Source: a bacterium
GTDB taxonomy: Bacteria > Patescibacteriota > Dojkabacteria > JAKAPS01
Reading direction: 5' to 3'
Assembly (NCBI GenBank): GCA_021806925.1
Contig: JAKAPS010000005.1
Span: forward strand, 80-64,079
Length of the DNA stretch: 64,000 bases
A program made the translations under genes and the position numbers. Shown piece by piece: positions 25,948-55,837 of this stretch. Every line of letters starts with the position of its first letter. The stretch's first letter is position 1. Under the pieces are notes generated by a model, which was not told the origin of the DNA, searched no databases, and worked only from the letters and a program-made list of their open reading frames with translations.

Positions 25948-25972
25948 CAGAGTTAAAAAGTAGACTAATACT

Positions 25973-26530
25973 ATGAACATAATAGCTGGGAAATACAAAA
26001 ATAAGAAACTTGTTTCATTCAGTGAAAATACTGTACCACTTTCCAGTAGAGCAAGAAATGGCATTTTTAATATATTACATTCATTTTTATCAGATGAAAA
26101 TAAAAGAGATAATCTTGATGTTCTAGATTTATTTGCAGGAAGCGGTGCAGTCGGACTCGAAGCAATAAGCAGAGGGATAGCAAAAAGTGTTACATTTGTT
26201 GATAATGATTATGACTCAATAAGATCAATAAATACAAACATCGCGGCACTTGGAGTTGAAGATATCACAAAGGTATATTTTAAAAATGCAATCAATTTCA
26301 TAGAAAAGAATGAAGATACTTTATATGATATGATATTCATAATGCCTCCATACGGATACCACTTTAAACACATATTAAAGATCTCATTGAAGCAACTTAA
26401 AGATAATGGCATTTTAATTCTTGAAAGCGACGGAAATAATCCTATAAGTGAAGATATATTAGAAGGAACAGGCTTAATTGGCAAGTACACATTCAGCAGA
26501 GTTGATATAAGCATATTCAAAAAAATTTGA
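25973..26530 (+). CDS. rsmD: 16S rRNA (guanine966-N2)-methyltransferase RsmD-like
   Basis: LDLFAGSGAVGLEAISRG SAM-binding motif and PPY motif; ~185 aa. Confidence 0.7.
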   Translation: MNIIAGKYKNKKLVSFSENTVPLSSRARNGIFNILHSFLSDENKRDNLDVLDLFAGSGAVGLEAISRGIAKSVTFVDNDYDSIRSINTNIAALGVEDITKVYFKNAINFIEKNEDTLYDMIFIMPPYGYHFKHILKISLKQLKDNGILILESDGNNPISEDILEGTGLIGKYTFSRVDISIFKKI

Positions 26531-26895
26531 AGCATTATTGCTACAAATATAGAATGACGATTTCAAATGTAAGTAAAGTAACACATGTATCGACGCATAA
26601 GATATAGAAAATCGTTGATAGATATGTAAAAGCAGGAAGAAGAATAAATACATATGAAGAAGTTAAGAAAATTGGAGTAGAGATGAGACTTCGTCAGTAA
26701 GGGGACAGATTTATGTAATGCGCTACTTGTTGAAAGGTAATATTGAAATTTCTTTAAATAATTCTTATTACCAATACTAATTTACATTGAACAACATTAT
26801 ACAAATTACTTTTCATTGCGAGTGGAATTACATGATTAGACCTTAAATTATTTCTAATCTGTAAATGTTATTTCTGTAAGAGTCCTAAATAGCAG

Positions 26896-26924
26896 TTGAC
26901 TTGTATATACGGGTTTGATACAAT
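26896..26924 (+). promoter_or_regulatory. sigma70-like promoter upstream of the Fic gene (TTGACT-17 nt-TACAAT)
   Basis: -35 TTGACT at 26896-26901 and -10 TACAAT at 26919-26924, with 17-nt spacing. Confidence 0.4.
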
Positions 26925-26930
26925 CAAACC

Positions 26931-26993
26931 AGACTAGGTTTAGACCTGTACGTAGACTAATTTCTAGACTCAAAATAGACTAATTAATAGATT
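26931..26993 (+). repeat. five to six direct TAGAC(T) repeats at ~12-bp periodicity in the Fic 5' leader
   Basis: AGACTAG 26931, TAGACC 26941, TAGACT 26953, TAGACT 26965, TAGACT 26976 and TAGATT 26988. Iteron/operator-like array between the predicted TSS and the ATG at 26999. Confidence 0.45.
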
Positions 26994-26998
26994 CAAAC

Positions 26999-28210
26999 AT
27001 GAATGATATAATAATAATGCAACCATTCAATCAACTATTTCTTAACCAATTTGTTTTAGCAGAAAGTCTTTTGCCTTTTACTAATGAAGAGCTTAGAAAG
27101 TTAGATACAGCCTTAAATAAGTATGAAATATTGTTCTTGAATCCAGATATTGAGAAAAACCTCATTAGTAAAAATGAACTCCTAGCATCTTTTGCTATCT
27201 CTAAGGCAGAGAACTCGAAGCTTACATTACAAGAAGCACAAGACGTGTACAGTTTTATCGTCAATAATGAAGACTACACATTTATTAGCGAGAAACTTAC
27301 CAAAGTGGGGAAATTAACAAACAAAGATTATGATAAATTAGAGTTTTTTAATATTGCTAAGGTATTTAGGAATATCAACCAAAACCCAATACATATACAG
27401 GATGTAACACCAGAATATATACTGGAGTTACATAAACAACTAACCCAAGGTCTTGATATCTTTAAGGATTACTTATTAGATTTTGACGTATATAAATCTG
27501 GACAGTGGCGTGATAACGATGATATTCGGGTTAATACATACAAACCAGCTCCATATAGTGAAATTGAGAAAGGCGTTGAAGAATTACTTAAGTGGGTAAA
27601 GGACAATATTAATATTACCTCTGTTGGCATATTTCATACCGCTTTGTATGCTCTCCACCCATTTTGTAATGGAAATAAACGAGTATCACGAATACTTGAA
27701 CATATATTTCTTAGAAGTTTAGGAATTAATAATAAGAATTTATATAGTACATCCTATTACTACCATAAGGAGAAAGGGAGATATATTAAATATCTCCTTT
27801 ATTCACTAGAGAAGAGAAATTTAAATCATTTTGTGGGATTTTTCCAAGAAGCATTGGTATTATCAATAATTGGTGTTATTAAAACCAGTTTAGAGGTAAA
27901 ACGATATGAATTTATTAATAACAAAGATCTAGATGAAAATACGAGAATCATTCTCAAGCCATTGATAAAACGGCATGAAATACAGTTTAACAAATTGTAT
28001 AAAGAAGTGGATCGTAAAATGGCACGACAAACATTCACCAATTATTTAGAGAAAGCTACAACAGAGAAAATAGTTACAAGAAGGAATGAAGGGCGTAATG
28101 TGTATTACAGCCTCAATACATCATTCCAAGAAGAGAAAGAGATCCATACATTACTAGAGTTCATAAAACAAAAACTCTCTTTTATTCCTGACGAAATGAA
28201 ATTAGTATAA
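26999..28210 (+). CDS. Fic-family protein with a Doc-type active-site motif (HPFCNGNKRVSR)
   Basis: The Fic motif position reads H-x-F-x-N-G-N-K-R-x-x-R. The N and K substitutions match the Doc (kinase-type) variant rather than the canonical AMPylating HPFx[D/E]GNGRxxR. The 403-aa protein has extra N- and C-terminal domains. Confidence 0.75.
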   Translation: MNDIIIMQPFNQLFLNQFVLAESLLPFTNEELRKLDTALNKYEILFLNPDIEKNLISKNELLASFAISKAENSKLTLQEAQDVYSFIVNNEDYTFISEKLTKVGKLTNKDYDKLEFFNIAKVFRNINQNPIHIQDVTPEYILELHKQLTQGLDIFKDYLLDFDVYKSGQWRDNDDIRVNTYKPAPYSEIEKGVEELLKWVKDNINITSVGIFHTALYALHPFCNGNKRVSRILEHIFLRSLGINNKNLYSTSYYYHKEKGRYIKYLLYSLEKRNLNHFVGFFQEALVLSIIGVIKTSLEVKRYEFINNKDLDENTRIILKPLIKRHEIQFNKLYKEVDRKMARQTFTNYLEKATTEKIVTRRNEGRNVYYSLNTSFQEEKEIHTLLEFIKQKLSFIPDEMKLV

Positions 28211-28620
28211 GCAATAAAGATTTGGATCATAGCGGACACTCATTCTACAATAAAAATATTAAGAAGTTTCAGGAAATACCAGATGATTTTAAAGAACAGA
28301 CTATAACGGATATTTAGCATGATATTGTTTGAAATTACGTTCTTAATATTGATGTTAAGCTTTTTATTAACAGAATGTATTTTTTTTAATGATTACAAAT
28401 TATGTTTTATTCTTATCTTGTTGAATTAATAATTTTTCTCTGTAAGAAAACATCCCATCATTTTATAATGGTATCGAAAAACTAGACAAAAGAAAACATA
28501 ATCTACTAAGCAATTTGGCAATTACGTTCAAGGAATGGTATATCAATCCAGCACTTTTTTAGTACTACAATTTTTATTCATTCTAACTATATTTACTTCT
28601 GATATATCACGTAAAAAGCA

Positions 28621-28650
28621 TTGACTCTAAACTAAGACAAGTAGTACAAT
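28621..28650 (+). promoter_or_regulatory. sigma70-like promoter (TTGACT-18 nt-TACAAT) upstream of the amidoligase-like gene
   Basis: TTGACT at 28621-28626 and TACAAT at 28645-28650. Confidence 0.35.
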
Positions 28651-28799
28651 GCTATCCATGGCATCCCATAACGTAGAGAAATGTGGATCATCGTTTGATG
28701 CTCTAACTTGTACATTATCTAAAGAGATAATTGAAGCAATTAAAAAAAATATGTTTTAATGTATGTGGTATATTAACCAGCGAATTCCAATCGGGTCGT

Positions 28800-29756
28800 A
28801 TGGAAATAAAGCCTAAAATTGGATGCGAGTTAGAATTTAGATTTATTCCACCAGATGAAGATTATTCTTTAGAGCATAAAAGAAATGTAGATGCATTTAT
28901 TGAATCAGTACGTAAAGATCCAAAACTCCATAAGATTCTACAAACACCTGATGATAAATATGGTATTGATACTGGATTATCAATGATTGGTCAAATCTCA
29001 GCAGAATTTAGATTAAACCCTTTTATATTGGATGAATATATTAATGAAATAGAATTCTTTATTGAATATATAGTAGAAAAATGTAATGAATACCATATAA
29101 TCCCTATTGTAATAGCAAATCATCAACATATATCAATTACTGACATAAATGGTTTATCGAATGTTATGAATAATATTAATGATCTGAATGCAATAATGGT
29201 GGGCATTTTAGATGCGTATCATAGACTTTTTCCATTAACAAGGCTTCCTACAGAAAAAGGAGTTGCACAATATAATTTTGGATTGAAACAAAACGGCTAT
29301 CCCGATAGTGCTATGACACCTTCAGGGTATCCCTGTATGTTTAACCCGAACCCAATAAGGATTGAAACAAGACTAAACAATTCAGAATATATGTTTGACC
29401 CATGGACTACTCTGTTCGTTATATTACTAGGAGTATATAGAGGATTATTGCTATCTAATAATCCTGAGTTAATTGATAAAGATTATCCATTAGATGTTGG
29501 TTATCTTCCACTTGGTAAGGAGTTCATGTATAATTGTTCTCCAGATAACAATTATATCTTTGCTATACAGCATCTAGTAAATGATGAAATCGTTGGACAA
29601 TTTTTAAGTCAAGGTGTTGTTGCTATGCTTCGCCTTATAGCAGGTCTATATAATGATATTTCAAAAGGAAAAATTGGTAAAGAGGATGCATTTAAGTTAG
29701 TTAGAAAATGTAAAAAAGCTTTAGAAAAAAGTAACCGAAAAAGAAGAAATACATAA
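28800..29756 (+). CDS. GCS2-like carboxylate-amine ligase / glutamine-synthetase-fold amidoligase (putative)
   Basis: IGCELEFRF (compare YbdK GvElEf), HQHISI (compare HvHvgv) and IRIETRL (compare lEvRvcD) resemble glutamate-cysteine ligase family 2. The ORF-track start at 28731 may be upstream of the real start. Confidence 0.45.
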   Translation: MEIKPKIGCELEFRFIPPDEDYSLEHKRNVDAFIESVRKDPKLHKILQTPDDKYGIDTGLSMIGQISAEFRLNPFILDEYINEIEFFIEYIVEKCNEYHIIPIVIANHQHISITDINGLSNVMNNINDLNAIMVGILDAYHRLFPLTRLPTEKGVAQYNFGLKQNGYPDSAMTPSGYPCMFNPNPIRIETRLNNSEYMFDPWTTLFVILLGVYRGLLLSNNPELIDKDYPLDVGYLPLGKEFMYNCSPDNNYIFAIQHLVNDEIVGQFLSQGVVAMLRLIAGLYNDISKGKIGKEDAFKLVRKCKKALEKSNRKRRNT

Positions 29757-55395: not shown

Positions 55396-55837
55396 ATTTT
55401 AGGATTTATAACGGATCTTTCGCAAAATTTTCACATGAAACATCCTGTTTGTATTGATATATATGGACAAAGAACAAATATTGCAAGAAATGTGTTGTCA
55501 CTAAATAATGGTATACAGAGTGAAAATTATATGCTATATTTTATATAAAATGATGAGATGTTTTCTTACAGAGAAAAGTGATTAATTCAATGAAATAAGC
55601 ATAAAACAGGGTTTGTAGTCACTAAAAAAATACATCCTGTTAACAAAAAAAGCTTAACATCAATATTAACGACATAATTTCAAACATTATCCTGCGGAAG
55701 ATCCGTTATAACTCAAGTTAAACAAACTTTACCCATTGTAAAAGTAGGAACGTTGATAAATCAATGAACATATTCCAAGTTTTGAAGGATAAGTAAAAAC
55801 ATTGACTAGATAGGATAAAGTGGGCAAAATTTAATTA

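Follow-up and report, generated by a model that had tools for sequence, protein, structure and literature searches.

We describe a candidate single-gene regulatory module in a 64,000-nucleotide stretch of bacterial DNA (the window throughout; positions 80 to 64,079 of contig JAKAPS010000005.1, assembly GCA_021806925.1, from a member of the Dojkabacteria), in which a gene for a 403-aa protein that unites a Fic domain with a C-terminal winged helix-turn-helix (wHTH) is preceded by a tandem array of short direct repeats, the TAGAC boxes. The best explanation of the locus, to which we give a probability of roughly 0.7, is a self-contained module made of an autorepressed Fic-wHTH protein with a Doc-type active-site loop, which suggests kinase-type chemistry. 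Four observations made by computation carry this proposal, namely the domain architecture of the protein, the invariance of its active-site and inhibitory motifs, the presence of the array across the family, and the co-variation of the boxes with the recognition helix of the wHTH. We propose that the boxes constitute a family-wide conserved operator whose units are most likely docking sites of the protein's own wHTH; the gene itself is, judged by its sequence relatives, a member of a large and highly conserved family of the Patescibacteria, or candidate phyla radiation.

The gene and the recognizable elements of its product are the following:

26999..28210, + strand: Fic-wHTH gene coding for 403 aa, the N-terminus of the homologues being conserved from M1 (MNxIxTxKPF)
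27197..27214, + strand: putative inhibitory-helix motif ISKAEN, residues 67-72, from the hhalign alignment to the canonical Fic-wHTH profile
27491..27544, + strand: flap-like segment YKSGQWRDNDDIRVNTYK, residues ~165-182, aligned to AGRFRTTQVLVGHH of FICD
27656..27691, + strand: Fic active-site loop HPFCNGNKRVSR, residues 220-231, from the FICD alignment
27926..28123, + strand: C-terminal wHTH domain, residues ~310-375, from AlphaFold, Foldseek and hhalign
28022..28063, + strand: recognition helix H343-355 with the preceding A342, ARQTFTNYLEKATT, residues 342-355, from co-variation with the boxes

In public gene calls the protein begins at M7 (27017; 397 aa, P0001), but we prefer the 403-aa start because only 2 nt separate the last box from 26999 and conservation among the homologues extends from M1 onward. 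The Pfam Fic model PF02661 matches residues 136-238 with 53.2 bits against a cut-off of 24. The loop HPFCNGNKRVSR aligns column for column with HPFIDGNGRTSR of FICD, placing H220 on the FICD catalytic histidine, and hence is the Fic active-site loop. Its core, HPFCNGNKR, satisfies the Doc active-site consensus HxFx(D/N)(A/G)NKR (PMC4177925). Thus, both the Fic assignment and the Doc-like motif at the active site, which an earlier note had read from the sequence of the window, are borne out by the Pfam match, the FICD alignment and the fit to the Doc consensus. The loop does not match the canonical AMPylation motif HxFx(D/E)GNGRxxR, for it has N at position 5 and K at position 8, both invariant in the family; nevertheless, next to the Doc-type N224 and K227 it retains the Fic-type final arginine (R231). 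It is the lysine at position 8 that is reported to invert ATP binding and thereby to make Doc a kinase (PMC4177925).

Upstream of the Fic core, an alignment by hhalign of the family profile with the canonical Fic-wHTH profile puts E71 on the glutamate of S-T-S-I-E-G, so that E71-N72 corresponds to the E(G/N) of the class II inhibitory motif (S/T)xxxE(G/N), with I67 occupying the usual S/T position. Across 51 sequences there is no variation at I67, S68, K69, A70 and E71, and hardly any at N72. The earlier note had reported neither an antitoxin gene nor an inhibitory alpha-helix gene next to the Fic gene; the former statement stands, whereas the latter does not hold in substance, since a putative inhibitory motif lies inside the protein itself. 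The FICD segment AGRFRTTQVLVGHH, which we take to be the target-docking flap, has its counterpart in residues ~165-182, a region modelled at low confidence (predicted local distance difference test, pLDDT, <50 at residues 160-164). In the AlphaFold model the wHTH has the succession of helices (H) and strands (E) H313-324, E327-329, H330-335, H343-355, E359-362 and E369-372; the ArsR/SdpR models of NCBIfam match this region weakly.

The full-length model (pLDDT 81; predicted template-modelling score 0.83) retrieves as its top Foldseek matches complete Fic-wHTH structures, namely 4rgl, 7xux, 8cil (CbFic2), 7cb8 and 3eqx/3zcn (SoFic), and its C-terminal part alone retrieves winged helices of the ArsR/SmtB/MarR type, while no Doc structure is found among the top 50 matches. 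The second-best match, 7xux, is a 380-aa 'Fido domain-containing protein' that we take to be CccR, an unconfirmed identification. Profile comparison agrees: hhalign against canonical Fic-wHTH proteins with HPFxDGNGR spans residues 17-377 (probability 99.9, E 9e-37), and the PADLOC SoFic model spans residues 42-372 (E 1e-26). The protein is not a SoFic orthologue, as its score with the SoFic equivalog NF046030 of NCBIfam is far below the cut-off (25.7 bits versus 550). It likewise stays below the cut-off of the Doc model TIGR01550 DOC_P1 (17.7 bits versus 38.65).

With the Doc of the phage P1 Phd/Doc system the window protein shares the consensus HxFx(D/N)(A/G)NKR with lysine at position 8, and Doc offers the precedent of a growth-arresting modifier of EF-Tu, which it phosphorylates at T382, encoded by an autoregulated operon. 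Doc is, however, a single-domain protein of about 125 aa with a six-helix core that has no flap and no final motif arginine, and it depends on a separate protein, Phd, for both neutralisation and co-regulation, whereas the window protein has a flap-like segment, R231, a putative internal inhibitory motif and its own wHTH. Membership of the Doc family was therefore rejected on the grounds of the length of 403 aa, the flap-like segment, the wHTH, the invariant R231, the TIGR01550 score and the absence of an adjacent Phd. In the classification of Khater and Mohanty, the flap beta-hairpin is absent from Doc and the pattern HxxxN[A/G]NKRxx[not R] is restricted to the Doc clade (PMC4454073); the combination of NGNKR, a final R and a wHTH is absent from their classes. 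The window protein is thus a Fic-wHTH protein, probably of class II, whose active-site loop is of the Doc type, and not a Doc protein.

The earlier note had regarded the gene as an orphan, a view that did not survive database searches, which recovered 664 relatives. The best 120 of the 664 are 397-406 aa long, nearly all of them 401-406, and share 60-84% identity with the window protein, the 100%-identical P0001 being excluded; those of the 120 that are named by source are from Patescibacteria (Levy- and Daviesbacteria), bar one Candidatus Binatia entry that is likely a binning label. A scan of GTDB with one genome per species gave 44 loci, in Gottesman-, Collier- and Beckwithbacteria and in some bins labelled Parcubacteria, and when 1.84 billion representatives were searched exhaustively with a profile, 125 clusters at 50% identity were obtained (E <1e-10). 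In alignments of 20 and of 51 sequences H220, F222, N224, G225, N226, K227, R228 and R231 are invariant, and H.F.NGNKR..R together with an AISKAE-type motif is kept in full-length relatives down to ~30% identity. Our literature searches found nothing on this family, whether as GNKR-type Fic proteins or as Fic proteins of Patescibacteria. As a separate observation, five relatives (P0162, P0167, P0176, P0177 and P0182) have Trp at a conserved, often invariant Gly position (HAFSNWNKR, NWLD). Going by their sequences, these look like products of UGA misread as Trp in place of Gly, as in code 25 of the Gracilibacteria/SR1; if this recoding is true, the family would reach Gracilibacteria/SR1.

The chemistry of this active site can be read in two ways. 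We tentatively favor a kinase on the basis of the loop sequence, at somewhat less than even odds. A protein of the same architecture and autoregulation, acting instead as an AMPylase or deAMPylase despite K227, or as a silent, nucleotide-sensing Fic domain that tunes DNA binding, appears rather unlikely to us. It would account for the retention of E71, R231 and the full Fic core with flap, and for the loss of the metal-binding carboxylate at N224, and it has the precedent that all characterised Fic-wHTH relatives are AMPylases; it has to contend with the lysine at motif position 8, reported to force inverted ATP binding in Doc, and with the invariance of H220, N224, G225, N226, K227 and R228 to ~30% identity, which argues for a maintained and specific active site distinct from GNGR.

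Upstream of the gene, the window displays the following elements:

26896..26924, + strand: sigma-70-type promoter TTGACT-17-TACAAT, with the -35 element at 26896-26901 and a TG-extended -10 element at 26919-26924
26930..26996, + strand: operator array of six direct TAGACTRAT-type boxes with spacings of 11, 12, 12, 11 and 12
26930, + strand: box 1, CAGACTAGG
26941, + strand: box 2, TAGACCTGT
26953, + strand: box 3, TAGACTAAT
26965, + strand: box 4, TAGACTCAA
26976, + strand: box 5, TAGACTAAT
26988, + strand: box 6, TAGATTCAA

The promoter, which matches the consensus at 10 of 12 positions and has the joint best score in the region, and the TAGAC repeats behind it had been pointed out by the earlier note; both are present as described, the repeats amounting to six boxes spaced by 11-12 bp. 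The array covers the predicted transcription start and the entire leader and stops 2 nt short of the ATG at 26999. Four exact TAGAC within 60 bp occur this once in the window (41 TAGAC in total on the + strand), the pattern TAGAC-N7-TAGAC-N7-TAGAC is found once against 0 in 100 shuffles, and no second box array exists elsewhere in the window. A lone perfect TAGACTAAT box lies at 25961-25969, 3 nt before the start codon (25973) of an RsmD-like methyltransferase gene. One such site is close to chance expectation for 64 kb and so provides no evidence of a regulon; a regulon was also rejected more generally, since by our own estimate lone TAGACTRAT sites outside arrays, of which the window has 1 and the 356 kb of loci have 9, are about as frequent as chance predicts.

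The array recurs throughout the family. By a strict count, 3-8 boxes stand directly before the start codon in 36 of the 39 genome loci, and the three exceptions also bear arrays, of TTAACTRAT boxes in L033 and of four TAGAC boxes, 115-190 nt upstream of the Fic start, in L040 and L043. The boxes conform to the consensus wwyTAGACTrATw and are spaced by 12 (66 cases) or 11 bp (48 cases), typically in the order ...12, 12, 11, and the metagenome loci show the same design. The 9-mer TAGACTRAT occurs 78 times in the leaders versus 9 times in the remaining ~356 kb of the loci, and exact triple-box matches in 84 loci all lie on the gene strand before the Fic gene, some of these arrays 100-190 nt upstream. 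In most loci an element of the form TTGACx-16/18-TAnAnT is found directly upstream of the first box or overlapping it. Between the window and its nearest relatives, DNA similarity of 75-77% runs from the array (26931/26953) to the stop codon, which defines the conserved unit as operator plus gene. As to the two displaced arrays, the 115-190 nt between array and Fic start (L040 1000-1110, L043 4808-4980) contain a palindrome and, in L040, also a 19-codon open reading frame (ORF) beginning immediately behind the last box; this stretch may be an insertion separating the operator from the gene.

We compared helix residues 342-345 with the box core, locus by locus, and observed the following correspondences:

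x(R/K)QT helix: TAGAC box, in at least 45 loci with three exact boxes and about 10 more with degenerate arrays
TRPT/SRPT helix: T(T/A)AAC box, in L033, L046, L049 and L061
TNKT helix: TACAC box, in L039
AEQT helix: TAGAG box, in L069
PDRT/TERT/TDRT helix: TGCAGTAAT (TGCAGT-type) or TTTCA(n)TGA box, in L078, L079 and L080
SRQA helix: ACTGTAAAG box, in L082
SRQA helix in a canonical HPFIDGNGR relative: three GGTTGTCATTTA boxes with a 12-bp period, in L072

A constant array design (a 9-bp box, a period of 11-12 bp, a position beside the start codon) in combination with a box sequence that changes with the helix is what is expected of a protein binding its own operator. We propose residues 343-344 (R, Q) as candidate readers of the box core, and autoregulation through the protein's own wHTH is, on these sequence correlations, highly probable. 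Direct repeats were not found at the distant members L081 and L083. In L069, the gene with the AEQT helix and TAGAGTAAT boxes (1507-2504) has a frameshift near residue 100, marking it as a pseudogene or an assembly error. At ~530-600 of L072 a canonical GNGR-type Fic-wHTH gene (HPFIDGNGRTAR) is preceded by the three 12-bp direct repeats GGTTGTCATTTA, situated directly upstream of the -10 element; hence, tandem-box operators may extend among Fic-wHTH proteins beyond the NGNKR clade.

Fic proteins that bind DNA have been described previously. CccR of Yersinia pseudotuberculosis is, as the window protein probably is, a class II Fic protein with an N-terminal inhibitory helix (motif S59ARIEG) and a C-terminal HTH, and has been shown experimentally to be an autorepressor that binds its own promoter at AGATAATCAT-N26-ATGATAATCT, with repeats near the -35/-10 elements and with separable regulatory and enzymatic activities (PMC9755527). 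It differs in its canonical AMPylation motif, in AMPylating its target, in being secreted by a type VI system and in its low identity (~18%) to the window protein; moreover, the operator of CccR comprises inverted repeats of 10 bp separated by a spacer of 26 bp, as against direct repeats (3-8 in the family) with a period of 11-12 bp. SoFic of Shewanella oneidensis (3eqx, 3zcn) shares the N-terminal helix, the Fic domain and the wHTH, and binds the 100 bp preceding its own start codon (bioRxiv 10.64898/2026.07.09.737422), a stretch within which the site is unmapped; it differs in having HPFxDGNGR and in AMPylating and deAMPylating switch I of EF-Tu, the AMPylation being reported in the same study. 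CbFic2 of Coxiella burnetii (8cil), the Fic-wHTH protein with the best Foldseek TM-score (0.60/0.67), has a canonical motif and a host histone as its target; its DNA binding, mediated by the HTH, drives dimerisation and switches the activity of the enzyme, and shows no evident sequence specificity, DNA of varied length and GC content being bound and regions outside the HTH contributing unspecifically (PMC10628234). Among these relatives a mapped operator is available only for CccR, and a tandem direct-repeat operator is not described in the papers on CccR, SoFic, CbFic2 and Doc. In view of these precedents, negative autoregulation is the best-supported reading of the boxes. A parallel for the mode of binding is offered by regulators of the OmpR/PhoB type, whose winged helices line up head to tail along direct repeats that each measure about one helical turn, as on the Pho box with its two 11-bp units. 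The analogy concerns this mode alone, for the window protein has no receiver domain and its homology to these regulators is limited to the winged-helix fold, and in the Fic family up to 8 units span the transcribed leader.

From these observations and precedents, we infer DNA binding by the protein, repression as its outcome, the chemistry and target of the enzyme, and a role in growth control, in a toxin-antitoxin-like function or in defence. In the mechanism that we propose, one polypeptide would comprise the N-terminal inhibitory helix (E71), the Fic core with flap, the H-P-F-x-N-G-N-K-R-x-x-R loop and the C-terminal winged helix, the last of which would bind the TAGACTRAT boxes in tandem, one every 11-12 bp. 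With the boxes occupying the DNA from the -10 element or transcription start to the ATG, the accumulating protein would coat this DNA and stop transcription by occlusion or as a roadblock. Such autorepression is proposed to keep the amount of a potentially growth-arresting enzyme fixed at a low value. As other Fic enzymes of class II do, the protein is predicted to keep its active site inhibited by means of E71, acting via R231, and after release of the inhibition K227 and N224 would favour the Doc-like transfer of a gamma-phosphate over the transfer of AMP. The most plausible, if still doubtful, target would be a translation GTPase such as EF-Tu, since Doc as well as SoFic, the closest enzyme in architecture, acts on EF-Tu.

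The earlier note had presented the gene as a possibly horizontally acquired, toxin-like effector with a Doc-type motif, whose boxes serve a separate repressor of the XRE or AbrB type, or are iterons. We hold it to be very unlikely that the locus is an orphan, recently acquired Doc-type toxin with no antitoxin that such a small repressor keeps silent, or that the boxes are iterons. The motif does fit the Doc consensus, there is no small gene next to the Fic gene, and the genomic context is variable, often including integrase, BrnT, HipA or AbiE genes. However, the family is large and highly conserved, the protein possesses its own wHTH and putative inhibitory motif, and the box sequence follows the protein's own recognition helix, which renders a separate regulator unnecessary. 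Iterons are 17-22 bp long, unlike these 9-bp boxes with their period of 11-12 bp; moreover, no rep gene lies nearby, the arrays are found only before Fic genes, in many species and on contigs that are chromosomal, and relatives are absent from the phage collections searched and represented on plasmids only by distant generic Fic proteins. Of the two functions that had been offered for the repeats, the repressor roadblock is thus the one retained, in the form of a repressor-type operator downstream of the promoter, while the iteron interpretation falls because the boxes are tied to the gene and co-vary with the recognition helix.

Another proposal is that RNA polymerase itself reads the boxes as -10-like TAnAnT hexamers, for alternative starts or for sigma-dependent promoter-proximal pausing. 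This is decidedly improbable, even as the first box is the best -10 candidate in about 8 loci and the last box could drive a leaderless transcript, there being no Shine-Dalgarno sequence and TATAAT-like elements occurring before ATGs. The conserved G3 and C5 and the following RAT are foreign to -10 elements; TGCAGTAAT, ACTGTAAAG and TTTCA(n)TGA are not -10-like and yet follow the same 11-12 bp array design; and both the co-variation of boxes and wHTH helix and the restriction of the array to one gene speak against it. The lack of a Shine-Dalgarno sequence is in itself unremarkable for the Fic gene, because only 4 of the 42 window ORFs of at least 150 aa have one. Many of these 42 ORFs instead show a TATAAT-like hexamer 5-15 nt before the ATG, a sequence pattern suggesting that the source organism commonly makes mRNAs with a very short leader or none.

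The boxes most likely act at the level of DNA and not of RNA. That repeated UAGACUAAU units in the mRNA leader bind an RNA-binding protein or the ribosome to control translation is hardly credible: while the array would be transcribed in most loci, lying between the -10 element and the ATG, always in the orientation of the gene and with no Shine-Dalgarno sequence, the leader RNA shows no significant folding (z = +0.43) and no Rfam match, the -35 element is downstream of the array in L063, L065 and L067, a distance of more than 100 nt separates array and ATG in L040, L043 and L060, and the domain that would bind the boxes is an ArsR/MarR-type winged helix. At gathering thresholds, the only Rfam match in the window is a tRNA-Val at 2044, in agreement with ARAGORN, and at E <= 1 there is none in 26450-28850; a noncoding RNA in the flanks of the gene was rejected on this account.

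Several points weigh against the autorepressed, Doc-like module that we prefer. The kinase assignment uses two residues only, and the final arginine and inhibitory glutamate, which the protein retains unlike Doc, both belong to the AMPylation/deAMPylation machinery. N224 stands in place of the metal-binding acidic residue, a change considered possibly inactivating (PMC4454073), and EF-Tu is suggested as the target by analogy. On the DNA side, the co-variation rests on few independent events, since the four TTAAC loci may be one clade, and direct repeats are unusual for Fic-wHTH proteins, CccR being a symmetric dimer that binds inverted repeats 26 bp apart (PMC9755527). Finally, TAGACT resembles the -10 hexamer TAnAnT and the first box is the best -10 candidate in several loci, so that part of the conservation of the boxes could serve RNA polymerase and not the Fic protein.

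The Fic gene is flanked by long gaps of 468 bp upstream (26531-26998) and, downstream, of 520 bp to a TTG at 28731 or 589 bp to an ATG at 28800, neither of which contains a gene in the public gene calls. These measurements agree with the ~470 and ~520 bp that the earlier note had given, but the significance attached to them is not sustained, as across 38 loci the gap has a median of 186 bp on the upstream side and of 98 bp on the downstream side when ORFs of 90 aa or more are counted; the long flanks are a peculiarity of the window genome and not a trait of the family. Downstream of the gene we identified:

28214-28304: decayed metallophosphoesterase-like N-terminal fragment, LDHSGHSFYNKNIKKFQEIPDDFKEQTITDI (ending in a stop), matching an intact ORF of L075 (3694-3975, MKIWIIADTHFYHENIKKFQGRPEDFNEQ...)
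28302-28477 (+ strand) and 55544-55710 (- strand): two copies of a ~165-bp element, 85% identical, in opposite orientations
28621-28650: promoter of the next gene, TTGACT-18-TACAAT

The ~165-bp element starts where the metallophosphoesterase homology stops, which suggests that this gene was disrupted by an insertion. Indels interrupt the 36-aa ORF at 28319-28429, and so the element is probably non-coding, perhaps akin to a miniature inverted-repeat transposable element; its copy at 28302-28477 has no Rfam match, and no significant RNA structure was found on either strand (z -0.29 and +0.60). In the ~365 bp at 26531-26895 there is no ORF, no Rfam match and no homology by blastn, tblastx or blastx to the fetched loci or the rest of the window. 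Pfam gives no match for the short ORFs at 26474-26653 (- strand), 28319-28429 and 28649-28759, none of which is conserved in the other loci, and a small antitoxin ORF in the flanks was rejected on these grounds.

The neighbors of the gene in the window, RecG, RsmD and three ORFs without Pfam matches, give no hint of a conserved context, as RecG, RsmD and the downstream ORFs are absent near the gene in all 44 genome loci and the commonest neighbor family is found in 7 of 38 loci. A second ORF of the Fic cluster is found within 5 kb in L003, L004, L016, L022, L034, L035, L040 and L081, being of the GNGR type except in L035. AbiEi/AbiEii-like pairs, BrnT, an HTH gene followed by HipA, or an integrase lie nearby in L003, L004, L022, L030, L033, L038 and L043 as well as in L077 and L079, and neighbors elsewhere include an XRE-type HTH, a nucleotidyltransferase and an AAA/DUF4143 ATPase. 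Hence, the surroundings in other genomes look like variable toxin-antitoxin or defence-island territory. The GC content of the locus (0.307) does not depart from that of its surroundings (0.305), we found no relatives in IMG/VR or among GenBank phages, and plasmids have only distant generic Fic proteins (~23% identity); an origin from a mobile element was rejected for these reasons, and horizontal transfer among Patescibacteria is plausible.

Autoregulatory Fic-wHTH proteins of the CccR/SoFic type were already known; what is new here is the Doc-type loop together with a previously undescribed, co-evolving tandem-box operator. Doc is so far the only established kinase class of the Fic fold, Fic enzymes having been studied as AMPylases, and the presence of a Doc-type loop on a full, presumably autoinhibited Fic-wHTH scaffold makes a one-lysine switch from AMPylation to phosphorylation testable. 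The box array likewise provides a sequence-defined candidate site for a class of Fic regulators, in which the helix and box variants suggest a recognition code. More speculatively, it is possible, though short of probable, that a lineage of Fic-wHTH proteins almost restricted to the Patescibacteria placed Doc-like kinase chemistry on a class II scaffold, through independent evolution or in some other way and with retention of the inhibitory glutamate and the final arginine, and so formed a toxin, antitoxin and repressor in one gene, with 9-bp boxes each accommodating one winged helix and a specificity re-programmed several times at residues 343/344. If true, this would add a new catalytic subclass of Fic enzymes and a simple protein-DNA recognition code, and would reveal a conserved switch of growth or translation in organisms with very few known regulators. 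With identities of 60-80% across candidate phyla of the Microgenomates group, the family, whose enzyme would limit its own amount and may act on translation, is a candidate for a general switch of growth, dormancy or defence in these tiny genomes.

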